Of a DNA stretch of 41,221 nt, positions 2,402 to 41,198 are shown in pieces (within the stretch, counting starts at the first letter, position 1; the number at the start of each line of letters is the position of its first letter). Source of the DNA: Smithella sp. (GTDB taxonomy: Bacteria > Desulfobacterota > Syntrophia > Syntrophales > Smithellaceae); assembly GCA_039679325.1 (NCBI GenBank), contig JBDKVD010000132.1, forward strand, positions 1 through 41,221, read 5' to 3'. The position numbers and the translations under genes were made by a program. The notes under the pieces are model-generated. The model saw only the letters and a list, made by a program, of their open reading frames with translations, was not told the DNA's origin and did no database searches.

Positions 2402-4609
2402 TTATATTTTAAGGCCCCGGGAACGGGCCAGTTCTTTTATCTTAATTTCGATATCAGGGCTTGCCTGCATCAGCCGTTGGAGATCATTGCGGGTTATTTT
2501 GTAGGCTGTCGTACAGTCTTCCGCAGCCCTGATGTCGGCGGTTCGTTGTTCGGTGAAACCGGCAGCGGTGAATTCACCGACCATGGAGGGAGGAGTAAAG
2601 ACAATGTCTGTGCCCGGAATTTCCAGCGTTCCACGAGATAATACATATCCGCAGTTTTCCGTCTCTCCCTTTTTAATTAAATAATCTCCCGCTCGCAAAG
2701 AAAGCTTGTTAAGAGACAGGGCAAGATTTGTCTTTTCCGTTACGTCTAATTGCCCGAACAACAGAGTCCGGCTCAGAAGCTCTCTTGCCTCCGCCAGATG
2801 ATAAAAACGTTTCTTAACGTTCGGATTGTCATTTAGAAACTCGTTAACCACATCGGCATTGAGTCCGACGACGATCCCGTAGGTTAACGCCTTTACGTGG
2901 GCCGACCTCTTTTTATTACCGGTGATAAAAACACTTTCCCCGAAAAAGTCGCCCGAATGCAAAACAGCGACTTCCTGGTTATTGCTGATGACCGAAAAGA
3001 GACCAAAGCCGACAATAAACAGGAATTCGGATTCTTCCATCTTTTCCTGCAGAATCAACTGTCCCGTTGCTATGGGGCGATAAATTGCCGCTTCCCTCAG
3101 TATTTGGGCCCATCGACCCACATCAATGTCGGGGAATGGTTTCAAAAAACTGTCTATTGCCCGGCTGATTGTTGAGGCAATGCTGAGGTTCTCAAACGGA
3201 AACAGATGGTAAGGCTCTACGAATGAGAAATGGAGCGGCACATCGGTCGCTTCATCCTGCCGATGCCCCAGAAAAGTCGCCCTGACGTCATGTCCCATAA
3301 AGTCCTGAAGCGCCGGATGCAGGCCGGCTTCTCCGCCGTCGGCAATCGTAACGTCGCCTTCAAAGACGCTCATGATTTGAATATATCTGTGGTCGGAAAT
3401 AACCCCCTCGGTCAGCATCTTGCGGGCGCAGGACAGGCCCACGGTGTCGGAAGTTATTTGAATTTCAGTCGGCAGTACGTCACTGCGCTGTTTTTTTCGT
3501 ACTTTGACGGCGATGCAGGGTATGGGATGCGACGTATATTGAAAGAAAAAGTCAATTCCGTAGATCGTTGTCCATTTTTCTATCGGTATGGGATGAAACT
3601 CAAAGTATTGTTTGATCACTTCGGGCGAAACATCCAGTTGCCAGGATAAAATATCCAGCATCATTTGATAAATATCTCTGGCAGTGTATATCCTGATTTT
3701 TCTTCCCCGGCGGATAAGCTTCAGCAGACCTCCCATATGATCTTCATGACAATGGGTAAGAATTAAAGCGTCGATCTCGGCGACACTGATTCCTGTTTTG
3801 AGGGCAAGTAAATCCCAGAAGGGGCAGCAATCAACCAATACCGCAAGACCGTTCAAGCGGAGAACCATGCAGGTGGTCGGACCTTTGGATTGAAACGGCG
3901 ATCCATATCCCAGCACCTGGAGAGAGAAGGCAAGGGCGGCGGGGAATCCGCCATAATTAGGAGGAACTTTCCAGACCGGTTTTATAGTTTCCTTTTCAGT
4001 GGGCGAGATGTCCAGCTCCTGACACTCGCCGGTTTCCAGGTCACGAATTATGAAGAACATGTTTCTTGTTCTTTCCACGGACCATTTGTTCGGTAAGGCG
4101 CTGCCGAGCTTATGGCATGACAGCATTTGTTCCAGAGGAATCATTTTCCCCTTTTTATTTTTAAGGGAAAAATATTTTTTTTCTTTAAGGTACTGATTGA
4201 ACCAGTTGGGTTCAACTCCAATGCTTTTAAAAAAGGTTTTCTCCGGCCCCTGAAACGTAAAATTTATTAATTTAAGGACGCGATCCAATTCCGATTCCGT
4301 AGCGCACAGGGCAATCTTCTTCTTCACCGACATATCGACAAGATCAAAGCCTCCGCCTTTAAATAAACTGCAAAGAAACATAAAGTCGCAAGGGTTTAAA
4401 AGCCTGTCTTCATAAGAATTCATGCCTCCATGAACCAGGATCTGGGGCCAGGGCAGATTTTCTTCAATAATATTTTGATGATACCCGGCAAATCCGCCAA
4501 AAAGAACAATATCTCCCTTGATCTTGCATAAGGCGGTACAGGGTTTACGATCCAGAATTTCAAAATCTTGCATAGATTTCCCGGTTATAGTTACACTCTT
4601 GACGGTCAT
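2402..4609 (-). CDS. Multidomain protein: unassigned N-terminal region + MBL-fold metallohydrolase + two cyclic-nucleotide-binding domains
   Basis: HxHxDH motif in LILTHCHEDHMGG. Two CNB phosphate-binding cassettes: FFGESVFITGNKKRSAHVKA and MVGEFTAAGFTEQRTADIRA (GE...R[ST]A). Confidence 0.8.
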   Translation of the reverse strand: MTVKSVTITGKSMQDFEILDRKPCTALCKIKGDIVLFGGFAGYHQNIIEENLPWPQILVHGGMNSYEDRLLNPCDFMFLCSLFKGGGFDLVDMSVKKKIALCATESELDRVLKLINFTFQGPEKTFFKSIGVEPNWFNQYLKEKKYFSLKNKKGKMIPLEQMLSCHKLGSALPNKWSVERTRNMFFIIRDLETGECQELDISPTEKETIKPVWKVPPNYGGFPAALAFSLQVLGYGSPFQSKGPTTCMVLRLNGLAVLVDCCPFWDLLALKTGISVAEIDALILTHCHEDHMGGLLKLIRRGRKIRIYTARDIYQMMLDILSWQLDVSPEVIKQYFEFHPIPIEKWTTIYGIDFFFQYTSHPIPCIAVKVRKKQRSDVLPTEIQITSDTVGLSCARKMLTEGVISDHRYIQIMSVFEGDVTIADGGEAGLHPALQDFMGHDVRATFLGHRQDEATDVPLHFSFVEPYHLFPFENLSIASTISRAIDSFLKPFPDIDVGRWAQILREAAIYRPIATGQLILQEKMEESEFLFIVGFGLFSVISNNQEVAVLHSGDFFGESVFITGNKKRSAHVKALTYGIVVGLNADVVNEFLNDNPNVKKRFYHLAEARELLSRTLLFGQLDVTEKTNLALSLNKLSLRAGDYLIKKGETENCGYVLSRGTLEIPGTDIVFTPPSMVGEFTAAGFTEQRTADIRAAEDCTTAYKITRNDLQRLMQASPDIEIKIKELARSRGLKI

Positions 4610-36286: not shown

Positions 36287-36697
36287 TTATTGGATTGCCG
36301 CCATAACTTTTTGGGCTGCGTTAAGTATTCCTTTTGGTTCTCTGGACAGGACAGCAACTGCCAGATCAACTAAGGCACCGGCGATATTGATGGCTTGTTT
36401 GATTGTATTCACCTGCTTAAGTGTTTTTTTGCCTGCCTCAACAGCATTTCTTAGTTCAACTGTTGCTTCATTGGCCTTTTTCCCGATTAACTGAATGCCG
36501 TAATTTCTGAACAAAACAACCAGCGCGTCCAGGCTGTCTTCATATTTTTCCAATTCGGCGGCATCTTCGTCGGATAAAGGCGGTTCCCGCTTTTCTATAC
36601 GAAATTCCAGTATTTGAGCTGAAATAAGCGCAAATTTATCCGCGATCTCATAGGCTTCTTTTTCTGGAAGAATTGTCTTTTCTGCCATTTGGCTCAT
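36287..36697 (-). CDS. Hypothetical small all-helical protein (about 133-136 aa)
   Basis: Clean ORF 17 nt after the upstream gene. AAAGGAG lies 9 nt before the second ATG (36688). I recognise no motif. Confidence 0.5.
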   Translation of the reverse strand: MSQMAEKTILPEKEAYEIADKFALISAQILEFRIEKREPPLSDEDAAELEKYEDSLDALVVLFRNYGIQLIGKKANEATVELRNAVEAGKKTLKQVNTIKQAINIAGALVDLAVAVLSREPKGILNAAQKVMAAIQ

Positions 36698-36714
36698 CTC
36701 CTTTCATAGGAAAA

Positions 36715-37644
36715 TCAGAAGGCTTCACTCATTTGTTTACGTAATTTTGATACTTCATTTTTATAGTCTATCAACTGCGTTACCAGGTCTTTGGCATCAA
36801 TCGTATTAAAATTCTTCAAAAGCTCAGAATGCGATTTCTGGAGTTTGTCTACGGCATTGACGAATGTGTCCACCAGTTTGTCTCTCGCCTCGATCTGCTT
36901 TTCCTCGGTTAACAATAAAGTATCCAAATAGTTCGAAGCCAGAGGTTCAGTTTTTGCTGTATCTTTCAACGATTTGCGCAAGACAATAATCTCTCTTTTC
37001 TCATCCTTCAACCAACTTCTGTAATTGAGGGTGGCGTAATCTTTGAGCGCATCGGTGATATTTATAATCGCCTCTTCGTGATTGAGAAGATCACGGATGG
37101 CGGCCTTTTGCATACGCTGTGTAACGACGCGGCTCAAGAAATCGGTAAGTGATACAATAGATGCAAGTTTCTTTTCATCGATCAGACTCTCCTGAGTACC
37201 GGAGCGCTTCACTTTGCTCAAGGAGTTCTGGATGCCCCCGAGTTCCTTTCTGTAGGAAGGAAGTGTGTCATTAGCAAGAGCCGCCAGCGTGTCGGCATAC
37301 TGCTCGAGGAGCGAGTTGGTATCGGACATAATTTTGTTGTTTTCATCAATGGGCCCGCAGAGCAATCTTGCTGTCTGCTCCGCCGCCGCCGCATCAAAAT
37401 TGCGGGAAGTGAGCATCTTTTTTAGCTTGAATTTCTCCACACAACTTGAGGTGGATCCGGCAAGCATGGGTTCAAATGCGGCCGAAAGCTTTTTAGTTTC
37501 GTCAGCATAGGTTCGAACGGCAGATAAATTGGCGCAGCCTGACAAAAATGTTGTGCCAAGTAAAAAAGCGATAAAACATAAAACAAAACAAAGATGTTTT
37601 GTTCCGTCCTTTTTTACTGGAGCAGTCTGGAATCCGGAGCTCAT
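36715..37644 (-). CDS. Hypothetical lipoprotein, helical/coiled-coil rich (~309 aa)
   Basis: The track ORF extends to 37758. An internal ATG (37644) starts a canonical lipoprotein signal: MSSGFQTAPVKKDGTKHLCFVLCFIAFLLGTTFLSGC (lipobox LSGC). The upstream 38 codons are low-complexity and overlap the previous gene. Confidence 0.55.
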   Translation of the reverse strand: MSSGFQTAPVKKDGTKHLCFVLCFIAFLLGTTFLSGCANLSAVRTYADETKKLSAAFEPMLAGSTSSCVEKFKLKKMLTSRNFDAAAAEQTARLLCGPIDENNKIMSDTNSLLEQYADTLAALANDTLPSYRKELGGIQNSLSKVKRSGTQESLIDEKKLASIVSLTDFLSRVVTQRMQKAAIRDLLNHEEAIINITDALKDYATLNYRSWLKDEKREIIVLRKSLKDTAKTEPLASNYLDTLLLTEEKQIEARDKLVDTFVNAVDKLQKSHSELLKNFNTIDAKDLVTQLIDYKNEVSKLRKQMSEAF

Positions 37645-37747
37645 AATGCACCCGCCTTTCATCATATTTAAGACAATGTTATCACTCCCAATCTGAAGTT
37701 CACCGTTGTGTCGGCTGTTGGGAGCTTGTGGATCGTTTTGTTGACGA

Positions 37748-38872
37748 CTAGGTGCCACCGTTGATAATACCGACTTTCTGGAGTTCAGTTTGGATCTTCA
37801 TAAGTCCTTCCGAGACATTATCGTGGAAGTCGATGCTCAGGATTCCCGCCAGGTCCGAAGGAATCTCTGTCTTGGACTTCTTAATGATACAGACGCGGTC
37901 TCGACCATAGCGTCCGTAAAACCACCCCAGCTCTAAGAGAACGTTCGGCCGTGCCTGAAAGTAACTCTTGCCTTTCTTCTGAACGAAGTCGTCCGGGGTT
38001 AGTATCGCGAAAGCATAACAACAATCATCCGCAAATTCCTCAAATTTTCTAATCAGTGTTTCACTTGCTCCCGGTTCCTCCTCGAGCACGATTGTTGTCA
38101 GATGGAGCTGATCCTCCAAAAGGTCGCGAAGTTCGCGCCACTTCGCTTCATCGTGACCATGGATAATGAATATCTTGTTACCACTGGGGATCAGGTAGCG
38201 TTGCTCCTGATCCGAGGCGAAGAAGTCGGCTCGAGTTTCCAGACGATCCGCTATAGTCGAGTACATGTTGACCAGTGTTAGAAACATCTGGTTGAGGCTT
38301 GATGGAAGCTTTTCTACTTGACGATACTTATGAACTGCTGTCCGAAGCAACTCTTTATACCGACGAATATTCCCCTGGTAACCGACGATGTCCGCTCGAA
38401 TGCAGGCGTCCATGCCACTGAAAAGGATCGGAAAGATGCTGAGGATCGGGCTGTACGTTTCGATCAGGTCTTTGTCCGCGCCAGGGAGCAGTGCATATTC
38501 CCGGATGATGGCGATAGCTTCGTTTGAGATGGCTAGACCTTTCGCGATTTCATCAAGGGCGTAAGAAAACCGCCCTTCCATTTGGAACACCATAGCCCGT
38601 GTTAAAGGAGTGTACAGGGTGGCTACGTGCCTCAGCATATCTAAAACAAGTTGTTCGTCCGGTGAAGTATGCACTTTCCCCTGGTTATACAGTGCATCCG
38701 CGGCGCGGGCTGTGATGTCTGCGTCTCGAATGTTCTGGGTCAAAAAGGCCATTAACGACTTCTGTATCACCTCGGACATATTGTCGAACAACGCCGCCAA
38801 TTCAGTGTCGTCGTCGGTATCATTAGTAACCAATTCTCCTTCCAATGGGACGATTTCTTTGTCTTCAGACAT
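37748..38872 (-). CDS. Protein with an unassigned ~230-aa helical N-terminal domain and a C-terminal TIR-like domain (CAP12/Pycsar-effector class, COG4271-like)
   Basis: C-terminus: KIFIIHGHDEAKWRELRDLLEDQLHLTTIVLEEEPGASETLIRKFEEFADDCCYAFAILTPDDF...ARPNVLLELGWFYGRYGRDRVCIIKKSKTEIPSDLAGI. This tracks the family consensus I remember (FIVHGHD...E.P..G.TIIEKFE...FA.VLLTPDD...ARQNV.FELG.F.G.LGR.RVC...PSD..G). Start chosen at the ATG 9 nt after AAGGAG; the track start is TTG at 38911. Confidence 0.8.
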   Translation of the reverse strand: MSEDKEIVPLEGELVTNDTDDDTELAALFDNMSEVIQKSLMAFLTQNIRDADITARAADALYNQGKVHTSPDEQLVLDMLRHVATLYTPLTRAMVFQMEGRFSYALDEIAKGLAISNEAIAIIREYALLPGADKDLIETYSPILSIFPILFSGMDACIRADIVGYQGNIRRYKELLRTAVHKYRQVEKLPSSLNQMFLTLVNMYSTIADRLETRADFFASDQEQRYLIPSGNKIFIIHGHDEAKWRELRDLLEDQLHLTTIVLEEEPGASETLIRKFEEFADDCCYAFAILTPDDFVQKKGKSYFQARPNVLLELGWFYGRYGRDRVCIIKKSKTEIPSDLAGILSIDFHDNVSEGLMKIQTELQKVGIINGGT

Positions 38873-38942
38873 GTTCCGGTTCTCCTTTATTAGACGTGTG
38901 GGTCGGGTCAAGCGCTCAAAGTCCGCACATAACCACGGGCTG

Positions 38943-41198
38943 TTAGACGACGTTGATCTGAACGGCTATGCCTCCCAGGATTCGCCTGCTTCTTACGTCG
39001 CGCTGAACGAGATCTGTACGAATTACGTCTCCCTTGCGTGCATTTGGCGGGACTTTCAGCCTCAGGCCAAAGGTCAATTGCTCCTGCCGGCGTACGGAGA
39101 TTGGTATTCTTGCTACAGCACCCTCAGGGAATTTTACTTCGACTCCCTTCGGAAGATTATTTTTCAACATTTCAGGATGTTCAGAAGTAAGCATCCGTGT
39201 CAGTTCTCCTGCACGATTGACTGTTGATGTCACTTGACCGGCACAGTCCAGATCTTTTATCCTATCCTTATCAATTGCAGAAGGCCTGTCTGCAAAGGGA
39301 GTGATTTCCAGGTCGGCGACACGTTTGAATACATCCGGTGAGGCATGCATCAGACTGGCCTCCAGCTTAAGTTGCGCTTTGGGCCTGATCAGCTCCATAT
39401 AAAAGCGCCTGGTCACCACGGAATGCATATTCGCTGCGACGAAAGGCAGCACAAACCACGTGTTGGGTTTCAGGTCAACAACGGTAAGATTCTTTTGAGC
39501 CAGATTATTTTGTTCCCACACATGACGACCGGCAAGAGGTTGATCTCCTTTTGTCAACACGGTGGCCAGCAGGCAGGCGTGCGCACCGGGAGGAGGTACA
39601 AGGCTGCGCGGCCATCGGGCCTGAAGTATCACGGAAGCGCCCGGCGCCAGATCGAAGCCGGAAGCGGCAGCGACGCAGGGCAGAAAATCATTGGGATAGA
39701 GAAATTCGGTTCCCGCGTATTGTTTTACATTAAATGTGACAACGAAGTGACGTACTGTTGCCGTTCCCCGGTTGCGAACTCGGGCGTAAAACCAGTTCGC
39801 CTGGCCATATTCCGGGGGCTGATGCGCAGTTCCGCCGTCGTCCTTGTTGCGCACCCAGAGATCCGGCGAATTCCAGAAAGCTCCAGACCACGCATCCGGC
39901 CCCGTGTGCCCCGGATCGTCGCGGAGCCAGACGTCAGGCGTCGCCGCCGGATTGGCAAATCCATAAACAAAGCGGTGAAACGCATCCACCAGCTGCGTAT
40001 TTCCCGTACGGCAGATGAGAAACTGCTCTATGTCGGTCGTGGTCACCAGTTTACGAAGCTGGAGCTTGTAGAAATCACTCATCAGTGCCTTTAAGGTATT
40101 TACACCGATTAATGCGGCTACGCCTCTCCAGAAGCGGTTGCCGAGATCATAAGCACCCTGTGCCGTGCTGCGAATCCATGGATTGCGCGAACACAGTGTT
40201 ACAGGGGGATCGGTAAAATTAAAGGCCTGGGATCCCGCAGCGCCTTCGTCATTGTAAACCGTCCAGGCCTCATCGAACCAGGCATCCGGCTGACTGGCGG
40301 GCTTGACGCCTCGTCCCCACCAGCTGTGAAATGCTTCATGCTGCAAAGAATCTGTTGTGGCTGTCGTTCCTCCATCGTATTCCATACCGCCGCGGTGCAG
40401 GAAAGCGACGAAGCGATTGCCGTGTGGGTAGGAACCATTAGAGTTTTCGTTGTTTGTGAGGTATGTTTTGATGTGATCTATTTCCAGGGGCAGATTAGCG
40501 CCGCTCGAAGGGCTCTGGGGATTGCCGGGAAGATTCCAGGCTTCAATGGAAACTATTTGACCTGATACAGGCAAGATTACCGTGTCGTTAGCACCGGCCA
40601 GTGTGTCCTGGGCGCGCAGTTCCAAAAGCGGCGAAAAAGCGGTAGAGCGTGCCGGCCAGTTAACTCTCCAGTGATTCGTGCCAAGCGATGACACAGTGCC
40701 GTTTGTAATGACGCTATGAACGACTGTTGTGTTTTGGAGACGCAATTCGATATCCAGTTCAAACTGATCGAAAATCAGATTCGCGGGCACCCATGATTCC
40801 AGATAACGTCCCGGGCCCAGATCCGTAAAACCGAAATTGAAGGCCAGTCTGGGGCCGGCGCTCCACTGGATTGCCGGAAGATATGAGCCTGCCATCGATG
40901 CCTGGGGAATACCGATCTGATATGTTATCTGCAGATTGTGCACGGAACCTGCCGCCAGTGATGTCTCCACAATGCGCAAATCGGCGTTTGCGCCTCCGCC
41001 GAAGTTATGCCAGGCAAGCTTCGCGACCGGTAAGGCGACTCCATCCAGCCACGCGGCGGTGATGTTCTGCCGAAGATCAAAAATGGGACAGCCTGCATAA
41101 CGCCCCATTTTAAACTCCATTGTAGCATCGCCCGTGCCCGAATTTGTCGAAGCATCGAAGGTCAGTGAAGCGGTGATGTTTTGGATATCGACGGGCAC
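38943..41198 (-). CDS. M1-family (LTA4H/aminopeptidase-N-like gluzincin) zinc metallopeptidase with a long unassigned C-terminal extension; no signal peptide visible
   Basis: GGMEY (GxMEN-like) then HEAFHSWWG...(X18)...E in WFDEAWTVY, i.e. HEXXH-X18-E, closely resembling LTA4H HEISHSWTGN / NEGHTVY. The track start is GTG and the frame stays open to the window edge (..LVDGLWA upstream), so the 5' end may lie beyond 41221. Confidence 0.8.
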   Translation of the reverse strand: MPVDIQNITASLTFDASTNSGTGDATMEFKMGRYAGCPIFDLRQNITAAWLDGVALPVAKLAWHNFGGGANADLRIVETSLAAGSVHNLQITYQIGIPQASMAGSYLPAIQWSAGPRLAFNFGFTDLGPGRYLESWVPANLIFDQFELDIELRLQNTTVVHSVITNGTVSSLGTNHWRVNWPARSTAFSPLLELRAQDTLAGANDTVILPVSGQIVSIEAWNLPGNPQSPSSGANLPLEIDHIKTYLTNNENSNGSYPHGNRFVAFLHRGGMEYDGGTTATTDSLQHEAFHSWWGRGVKPASQPDAWFDEAWTVYNDEGAAGSQAFNFTDPPVTLCSRNPWIRSTAQGAYDLGNRFWRGVAALIGVNTLKALMSDFYKLQLRKLVTTTDIEQFLICRTGNTQLVDAFHRFVYGFANPAATPDVWLRDDPGHTGPDAWSGAFWNSPDLWVRNKDDGGTAHQPPEYGQANWFYARVRNRGTATVRHFVVTFNVKQYAGTEFLYPNDFLPCVAAASGFDLAPGASVILQARWPRSLVPPPGAHACLLATVLTKGDQPLAGRHVWEQNNLAQKNLTVVDLKPNTWFVLPFVAANMHSVVTRRFYMELIRPKAQLKLEASLMHASPDVFKRVADLEITPFADRPSAIDKDRIKDLDCAGQVTSTVNRAGELTRMLTSEHPEMLKNNLPKGVEVKFPEGAVARIPISVRRQEQLTFGLRLKVPPNARKGDVIRTDLVQRDVRSRRILGGIAVQINVV

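Follow-up and report, generated by a model that had tools for sequence, protein, structure and literature searches.

A Smithella protein that joins a TPR-like helical domain to a PF10137 TIR-like domain, a candidate one-gene anti-phage NADase

The locus described here lies in a stretch of 41,221 nucleotides from Smithella sp. (contig JBDKVD010000132.1 of GenBank assembly GCA_039679325.1), which we refer to in its full length as the window. Its reverse strand carries a gene for a protein of 374 amino acids in which an all-helical N-terminal domain is fused to a C-terminal TIR-like domain. The gene and the parts of its product are as follows (coordinates of the window).

37748..38872, minus strand: TIR-like protein gene, 374 amino acids, complete, stop codon included
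38882..38887, minus strand: Shine-Dalgarno sequence AAGGAG, read from the sequence, 9 nucleotides before the ATG at 38872-38870
38819..38872, minus strand: acidic N-terminal tail, residues 1-18, predicted to be disordered (predicted local distance difference test score, pLDDT, below 50 at residues 1-4 and 6-18)
38216..38818, minus strand: putative sensor or regulatory module, residues 19-219, seven-helix and TPR-like (AlphaFold2 model and profile match to TPR designs)
38177..38215, minus strand: linker, residues 220-232, from the last helix to the first TIR strand, with a lower pLDDT of 63-75
37775..38176, minus strand: PF10137 TIR-like domain, residues 233-366, predicted nicotinamide adenine dinucleotide (NAD+) glycohydrolase effector (Pfam, PDB and Foldseek matches)
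37931..37933, minus strand: GAG codon of Glu314 in NVLLELGWFYG, the putative catalytic glutamate (alignments)

The encoded protein is 100% identical to NCBI entries MEN6331527.1 and MEN6488223.1, both named 'MAG: nucleotide-binding protein [Smithella sp.]' (MAG, metagenome-assembled genome). A mechanical call of open reading frames (ORFs) extended the gene to an upstream TTG (37748..38911, 387 amino acids). Because of the placement of AAGGAG and the conservation of Met1, which is kept in 92% of 79 aligned homologues, we consider the 374-residue frame to be right and the 387-residue one to be wrong, in agreement with the first-pass annotation of this DNA. AlphaFold2 modelled the full-length protein from the 79-sequence alignment with a mean pLDDT of 89.2 and a predicted template-modelling score (pTM) of 0.69.

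The C-terminus is a TIR-like domain of the PF10137 type. The Pfam model PF10137 (CAP12-PCTIR_TIR), whose cut-off is 24.7 bits, matched residues 233-350 with a score of 117.7 bits (E=3.7e-34) and was covered from position 1 to position 118 of its 119. The first-pass annotation had expected this very match and had placed the domain at about residues 245-374; the assignment stands, with a boundary that needs to be moved to a slightly earlier start at residue 233. Glu314, the conserved glutamate that had been pointed out in LLELG, is invariant in 79 family members (alignment A1) and in 40 paralogues (alignment A5), and in PDB sequence searches it aligned with the glutamate of the (F/L)E(F/L)G motif in all the relatives matched; this motif lies in NVVFEFG in the case of SfSTING/Cap12 and in NVHLEFG in that of PycTIR. 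The residues invariant throughout the family are Glu314, Asp294, Asp295, Gln306, Arg308, Asn310, Gly316, Trp317, Phe318, Asp340 and Gly343. The 'PSD..G' tail named in the same annotation corresponds to Pro338, Ser339, Asp340 and Gly343, which are 96-100% conserved.

The PDB sequence searches matched only the TIR parts of relatives, namely Cap12/SfSTING (7un8; E=1.4e-7 with the full-length query and 3.1e-8 with the TIR domain alone), a second TIR-STING protein (9lmq) and PycTIR (8jsj; E=0.0011 and 0.00032, respectively). AlphaFold2 predicted a beta-alpha pattern typical of a TIR or flavodoxin-like fold over residues 233-366, and a Foldseek search with the C-terminal domain returned the SfSTING TIR (7un8) at E=2e-4, followed by TIR-STING 9lmq, BtpA, TIR-APAZ, AbTir and SARM1. 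Judged from these sequence relationships, the domain is predicted to be an NAD+ glycohydrolase (NADase) that uses Glu314.

The TIR domain was also matched by phrog_16442 (E=2.4e-35), a phage protein family of unknown function, and 253-residue 'TIR-like domain-containing' proteins encoded by E. coli phages resemble it. In one such protein, from Escherichia phage vB_EcoM-689R2 (ON470582.1; L093 3300-4061), the C-terminus is 31% identical to the TIR domain.

The approximately 230 residues that precede the TIR-like domain had been guessed to be all-alpha. This was borne out by the AlphaFold2 model, in which they form seven helices (residues 19-44, 48-66, 71-99, 102-127, 134-165, 169-188 and 195-219) with pLDDT values of mostly 94-98 across the block. 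Modelled alone, the N-terminal domain again consisted of seven antiparallel helices (pLDDT 90, pTM 0.82). Its conserved motifs comprise Gln46, Glu99-Gly-Arg-Phe102, Ala105, Gly164-Tyr-Gln-Gly167, Tyr172, Leu176 and Ala208-Asp-Arg-Leu-Glu-x-Arg214.

At the thresholds used, no Pfam, NCBIfam, PADLOC or PHROG model matched residues 1-186. Over residues 1-232, Pfam, NCBIfam and PADLOC yielded no match to a cyclic nucleoside monophosphate (cNMP)-binding, SAVED, STING or SLOG domain, as the first-pass annotation had supposed, and there was no CARF similarity. The model of the N-terminal domain had no Foldseek match at E<=1e-3 in the PDB or in BFVD, a collection of viral structures, and none of these comparisons assigned it to a well-known ligand-binding family with a known system context. 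The designed helical repeats that ranked at the top of the Foldseek list were disregarded on account of their poor template-modelling (TM) scores. The best superposition on a real protein was that on the Bro1 domain of HD-PTP (TM 0.54-0.57, root-mean-square deviation (RMSD) about 4 A over about 175 columns), and the RNA-binding domain of SRP68 superimposed with a TM of 0.47. The E-values of both were non-significant, and the resemblance is at the level of the fold only.

A profile of 35 N-terminal domains matched consensus-TPR designs (7obi/3kd7) with E-values of 4.6e-6, 0.0023 and 0.005 at profile positions 77-132, a region that includes the conserved FQxEGRFxxA motif. Pfam TPR models did not match the protein at E<=0.1. 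A TPR-S sensor (PF20308), as present in CHAT proteins encoded beside some homologues, was considered and rejected: Pfam gave no PF20308 match on the protein, and hhalign assigned a probability of 0.2% to an alignment with the TPR-S-containing C-terminus of a giant protein from locus L029. Because of the consensus-TPR profile match and the Bro1 and SRP68 superpositions, the helical domain is best described as a divergent TPR-like helical repeat, presumably a generic protein-binding scaffold, and not as a novel fold.

The complete architecture occurs in more than 100 protein clusters (90% identity) named 'nucleotide-binding protein' or 'TIR domain-containing protein'. The family is therefore already catalogued; its helical module is covered by no family database that we searched. 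In one-genome-per-species GTDB contigs from 185,579 species we found about 27 full-length loci, which span six phyla plus one archaeon. They belong to Smithellaceae and other Desulfobacterota, Acidobacteriota, Betaproteobacteria (Dechloromonas, Azoarcus), Verrucomicrobiota, Geobacter, Bacteroidota (Chitinophagaceae, Saprospiraceae, Algoriphagus, Bacteroidales) and the archaeon Methanothrix. The homologue in Algoriphagus litoralis is WP_111670141.1. Such rarity combined with such wide scatter indicates horizontal spread.

The two domains have diverged at very different rates. Mean pairwise identity is 26% for the helical domain and 58% for the TIR domain, the latter being higher in all 3,081 of 3,081 pairs. 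When 1.84 billion cluster representatives were scanned exhaustively by phmmer, residues 1-232 yielded only 26 matches, two of which have other architectures. In P0131, a canonical TIR_2 domain at residues 7-121 is followed by the helical domain at 246-434 (whole-library E=4e-9). In P0124, a DUF4062-like domain is followed by a Pro/Ala-rich linker and by the helical domain at 39% identity (E=5e-41); the DUF4062-like domain contains a TEHE motif at residues 97-100 and matches PF13271 weakly (E=0.0017, 19 bits against a Pfam cut-off of 24.7). Motifs of the EGRF type (QGRF in P0131), GYQG and A[DE]xLExR are kept in both proteins, and are therefore tied to the helical module's own function rather than to a PF10137-specific contact. 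Conversely, the 40 nearest TIR paralogues (47-53% TIR identity) carry at least three other recurrent, unrelated and unannotated N-terminal regions, or AbiTii, and none of the 40 has a known nucleotide-sensor domain.

The last helix and the linker (from about residue 187 through 232) are common to the PADLOC PDC-S35 models, and from residue 167 onward similarity extends to paralogues such as P0110, whose alignment begins at that residue. The segment that starts at residue 167-187 is thus a candidate stalk. Further searches with the N-terminal domain were less productive: a profile search with alignment A3 retrieved only 16 proteins that were already known and one with P0064 retrieved none, for both of which the word-index limits of the tool are probably responsible, and tblastn against plasmids gave no match. 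Besides P0131 itself, the P0131 locus (L089 1-9173, on a metagenomic contig) encodes a patatin-like lipase, two TIR_2 proteins and, between these two, a WD40 protein, and resembles a dense conflict island.

These patterns bear on a reading in which the helical domain is only a constitutive oligomerization scaffold and the protein is a toxin-like or housekeeping NAD(P)+/nucleotide enzyme, controlled by its expression or by an unlinked antitoxin. Oligomerization is needed for the NADase activity of TIR domains (10.64898/2026.05.01.722283), the conserved motifs could be self-association surfaces, some loci have no defence neighbours, and the database name 'nucleotide-binding protein' is generic. 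We nevertheless regard it as unlikely. Divergence twice as fast as that of the enzyme domain in every pair would not be expected of a mere scaffold, nor would its replacement by unrelated N-terminal modules in the nearest paralogues; constitutive NADase activity would be toxic; the very sparse and patchy distribution speaks against a housekeeping role; and no antitoxin-like gene is conserved next to the gene in the 27 loci.

To find partner genes, ORFs were called in the 27 full-length loci and the window and clustered by BLASTP. Beyond close relatives, only the TIR protein itself was common to these loci. No CD-NTase, Pycsar (pyrimidine cyclase system for antiphage resistance) cyclase or ThsA-type effector was present among the 33 other ORFs of the window or in the Pfam-annotated contexts. 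The protein therefore most likely acts as a stand-alone one-gene system. Conflict or defence genes occur in about half of the independent neighbourhoods.

The best sequence match in the PDB is Cap12/TIR-STING (SfSTING of Sphingobacterium faecium, 7un8; 9lmq), a member of the same PF10137 family. The two TIR domains superimpose with an RMSD of 3.3 A over 136 columns (Foldseek E=2e-4) and share the D-D, Q-x-R-x-N and PSDL-G blocks as well as the glutamate. The domain order, however, is the opposite one: Cap12 has its TIR at the N-terminus and STING at the C-terminus, whereas the Smithella protein has no STING domain. It also scores 51.0 and 46.8 bits against an NCBIfam Cap12 equivalog cut-off of 450, and no CD-NTase gene lies near it in the window or as a conserved neighbour in the 27 loci. 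PycTIR (8jsj) resembles the Smithella protein in having an N-terminal regulatory domain and a C-terminal PF10137 TIR, but the PADLOC PycTIR model matches only residues 203-353, that is, the TIR part (E=9.5e-15). The region that matches a cNMP-binding domain in PycTIR-type models is replaced here by the seven-helix TPR-like domain, PF00027 was not found, and neither the window nor the related loci contain a PycC cyclase. Since there is no cyclase gene and no conserved neighbour and the Cap12 cut-off was failed, we do not consider the protein an effector of Pycsar or of the cyclic oligonucleotide-based antiphage signalling system (CBASS), although it is a PF10137 member.

The best match in a defence database was PADLOC PDC-S35 (E=1.9e-40; residues 187-369 against profile positions 75-255 of 264), a single-gene 'phage defence candidate' derived from guilt-by-embedding (10.1101/2024.01.29.577857). 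Both are stand-alone single genes. The PDC-S35 models, however, are 231-278 positions long, their first 75-120 or so positions are unmatched, and residues 1-186 of the Smithella protein lie outside them.

Accordingly, the claim that the helical region is a new input domain for this effector class was borne out in part. The domain is indeed distinct and all-helical, and it resembles no ligand-binding input domain known from the class. It belongs, however, to an existing family of more than 100 clusters, is TPR-like and not a new fold, and sits in a stand-alone protein that has no cyclase partner, so that it is not an input domain of CBASS or Pycsar.

The helical domain could instead be the receptor for a small molecule whose synthesis is encoded at another place in the genome, such as a cyclic oligoadenylate, another nucleotide, nicotinamide mononucleotide (NMN) or NAD+, which would make the protein a trans-acting effector. 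A precedent exists in SARM1, whose helical-repeat (ARM) domain binds NMN/NAD+. The PF10137 TIRs of known function, Cap12 TIR-STING and PycTIR, are activated by nucleotides; in Acidobacteriaceae, only 1 kb separates the homologue from a type III-A Csm module that includes Cas10; and the invariant or near-invariant polar residues of Gln46, EGRF, GYQG and Arg214 could make a ligand pocket. A type III system, however, is near only two of the 27 loci, which are closely related, and no signal-making enzyme is conserved nearby. The absence of CARF, SAVED, STING, cNMP-binding and SLOG similarity in Pfam, NCBIfam and PADLOC, the poor structural likeness to SARM1 (TM 0.23-0.24) and the fact that TPR-like solenoids usually bind proteins or peptides also argue against such a receptor, which we find distinctly unlikely. 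Still more doubtful is a bolder version, in which the seven-helix domain is a novel all-helical receptor for a diffusible signal from a system encoded elsewhere (for example a cyclic oligoadenylate from the type III CRISPR module beside the Acidobacteriaceae homologues, or an NAD-related metabolite) and serves as a plug-in for three NADase domains (PF10137, TIR_2 and DUF4062-like). If true, it would represent a new ligand-binding fold for nucleotide-based immune signalling.

The TIR domain might, alternatively, be a signal producer of the ThsB type that makes a messenger resembling a cyclic ADP-ribose (cADPR) isomer for a separate effector, and not an enzyme that depletes NAD+. Many bacterial TIRs generate signals (10.64898/2025.12.03.692087), and a two-gene TIR/TPR system has been reported to make a cADPR isomer (10.1101/2023.05.26.542521). 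The PF10137-clade proteins of known role, however, act as effectors that consume NAD+. The same survey of bacterial TIR immunity classed the TIRs of CBASS and Pycsar as effectors and set stand-alone TIR proteins aside as non-signalling in its treatment of Thoeris (10.64898/2025.12.03.692087). The Smithella domain further differs from Thoeris TIRs in being PF10137 and not PF08937, and neither a ThsA-like nor any other effector gene is conserved next to it in the 27 loci. We judge a signal-producing role to be highly improbable. Each of the three alternatives, scaffold, small-molecule receptor and signal producer, is less well supported than a one-gene abortive-infection system.

A precedent for such a system is provided by Swarozyc and Vulcan. 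In Swarozyc (KpSwz), a DUF4062 NADase is joined to an auxiliary domain and is activated when the phage portal binds to that domain; helical 'stalks' lie beneath the TIR-like domains (bioRxiv 10.64898/2026.05.01.722283). Vulcan combines a NIR domain with HEAT repeats and is triggered by lambdap79 (10.64898/2026.09.04.749371). Both are single polypeptides that combine a TIR-fold NADase with a non-catalytic domain through which a phage protein activates them, so that NAD+ is depleted and the infection aborted, and we propose the same logic for the Smithella protein. A further likeness is the fusion of a homologue of its helical domain to a DUF4062-like domain in P0124. The NADase domains of Swarozyc and Vulcan, however, are DUF4062/NIR and N-terminal, whereas that of the Smithella protein is PF10137 and has no PF13271 match. 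The KpSwz sensor has a winged-helix/helix-turn-helix fold and is not a helical repeat, and that of Vulcan is described as HEAT repeats.

The PF10137 effector domain, the absence of a partner gene from the loci compared, the conflict contexts, the patchy distribution, the sensor-like helical domain and the precedent of Swarozyc and Vulcan together lead us to favour the view that the protein is probably a self-contained, one-protein anti-phage abortive-infection NADase with a fused sensor. An input role of the helical domain is suggested by its fast evolution, its shuffling among TIR-type domains and the Swarozyc/Vulcan analogy. From the domain identity onward, NADase activity, autoinhibition, the nature of the trigger and a defence function are steps that we infer by analogy. 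In uninfected cells the helical domain would restrain the TIR domains and so keep them inactive. On infection it would bind a cue, most likely a protein of the phage, and binding would rearrange or cluster the protein via the last helix and the linker (approximately residues 187-232). The TIR domains could then assemble into an active oligomer that would hydrolyse NAD+ via Glu314, so that the infected cell would be starved and the infection aborted.

Several observations weigh against this proposal. A variable surface for the binding of phage proteins accounts for the strongly conserved polar motifs EGRF, GYQG and ADRLExR no better than does a site for a small ligand or a fixed interface within the protein or its oligomer. 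The inter-domain geometry is uncertain, with the pTM of 0.69 for the full protein standing against 0.82 for the N-terminal domain alone. P0124 and P0131, from which shuffling of the module is read, are singleton metagenomic proteins, and at several loci (the window, L094 and L095) the neighbours are mostly housekeeping or unrelated genes.

So far, the PF10137 class is known only in a slave role, as an effector that CBASS and Pycsar signalling controls. If the one-gene proposal is true, the same class of NADases also acts autonomously, with its own fused sensor, and an unannotated helical module is defined that has become joined to three or more different TIR-fold domains in the course of evolution. 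The gene would thereby fit a design principle that has been demonstrated for related NADase classes in other bacteria. After Swarozyc and Vulcan this principle is no longer surprising, and the present case is of value for the catalogue and as an example that can be tested, but introduces no new concept. As the hosts comprise anaerobes that are hard to study (Smithella and Methanothrix), soil Acidobacteriota and Bacteroidota, the triggers may come from viruses of which model systems include few.

The conflict neighbours of the family are diverse: MazE/PIN; a TIR_2-TPR protein with a SLATT partner in Methanothrix; Barstar, SatD and TIR_2; an 1,800-residue DUF7379-LCAT-CHAT-TPR-S protein with a TIR_2-TPR protein in Bacteroidota; a type III-A Csm module in Acidobacteriaceae; an nSTAND1-pYEATS protein with a clostripain-like peptidase (Peptidase_C11) in Geobacter; and an Abhydrolase-TPR-S protein in an Acidobacteriota MAG.

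At several Bacteroidota loci, genes for giant DUF7379-LCAT-CHAT-TPR-S proteins of approximately 1,600-1,800 residues directly precede the TIR gene and share its strand, and the Abhydrolase-TPR-S protein occupies the same position in the Acidobacteriota MAG (coordinates of the giant or TPR-S neighbours: L091 1571-6985, L032 134-4891, L034 520-5868 and L011 4376-5974). These TPR-S-type upstream proteins are possibly conflict-system neighbours and not universal partners. In the Geobacter MAG (L028 3883-8575), genes for the nSTAND1-pYEATS nucleoside triphosphatase and an overlapping clostripain-family Peptidase_C11 flank the TIR homologue on the same strand, and the three may form an operon in that lineage.

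In Acidobacteriaceae MAGs (L096 469-8155, L018 4987-7086), the TIR homologue lies beside the type III-A Csm module (Cas10, Csm2, RAMP, Csm4) and directly follows a gene for an Rce1-like (CPBP) membrane protease. In L018 a single ORF of 699 amino acids runs without interruption through the Rce1-like, helical and TIR parts; it is either a fusion or a sequencing artefact.

In the window, a two-gene cassette lies downstream of the TIR gene, between it and a glutaminyl cyclase gene (36287-37758, minus strand); neither gene has a Pfam, NCBIfam, PADLOC or PHROG match. The first is a lipoprotein-like, coiled-coil-rich ORF with a signal peptide and the lipobox LSGC and a likely start at about 37644, and the second is a helical ORF of 136 amino acids. 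Two Smithellaceae relatives (L009 and L010) have neither gene at this site, so that their TIR and glutaminyl cyclase genes are immediate neighbours; the cassette genes were rejected as partners on these grounds. Scans around the TIR gene revealed no terminators or promoters above shuffled expectation and no mobile-element repeats.

A Pycsar system in the window was likewise rejected. The PADLOC PycC/PycTIR matches all fell on a distant ORF (2402-4609, minus strand), 33 kb off, through its cNMP-binding domains; the PycC match covered profile positions 3-118, the cNMP-binding domain of that ORF, and included no cyclase domain. The 735-residue product combines a metallo-beta-lactamase fold with two cNMP-binding domains, and its gene adjoins hydrogenase maturation genes. 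Its similarity to the anti-Pycsar nuclease Apyc1 is sub-threshold (28 bits, where the cut-off is 50).

Upstream of the TIR gene, positions 38943-41198 (minus strand) encode the C-terminal 751 residues of a 932-residue protein that is cut by the contig end and is 86% identical to L009:3131-5929. It contains a HEAFH (HExxH) motif with weak Peptidase_M1 similarity, its relatives have a HAD-like N-terminus, and its GC content is about 0.54. This gene is conserved upstream of the TIR gene only in Smithellaceae and was therefore rejected as a partner. Together, the TIR gene and this upstream neighbour have a GC content of 0.48-0.54, compared with about 0.42 in the adjoining uppS-cdsA-dxr-rseP-tsaB housekeeping block.

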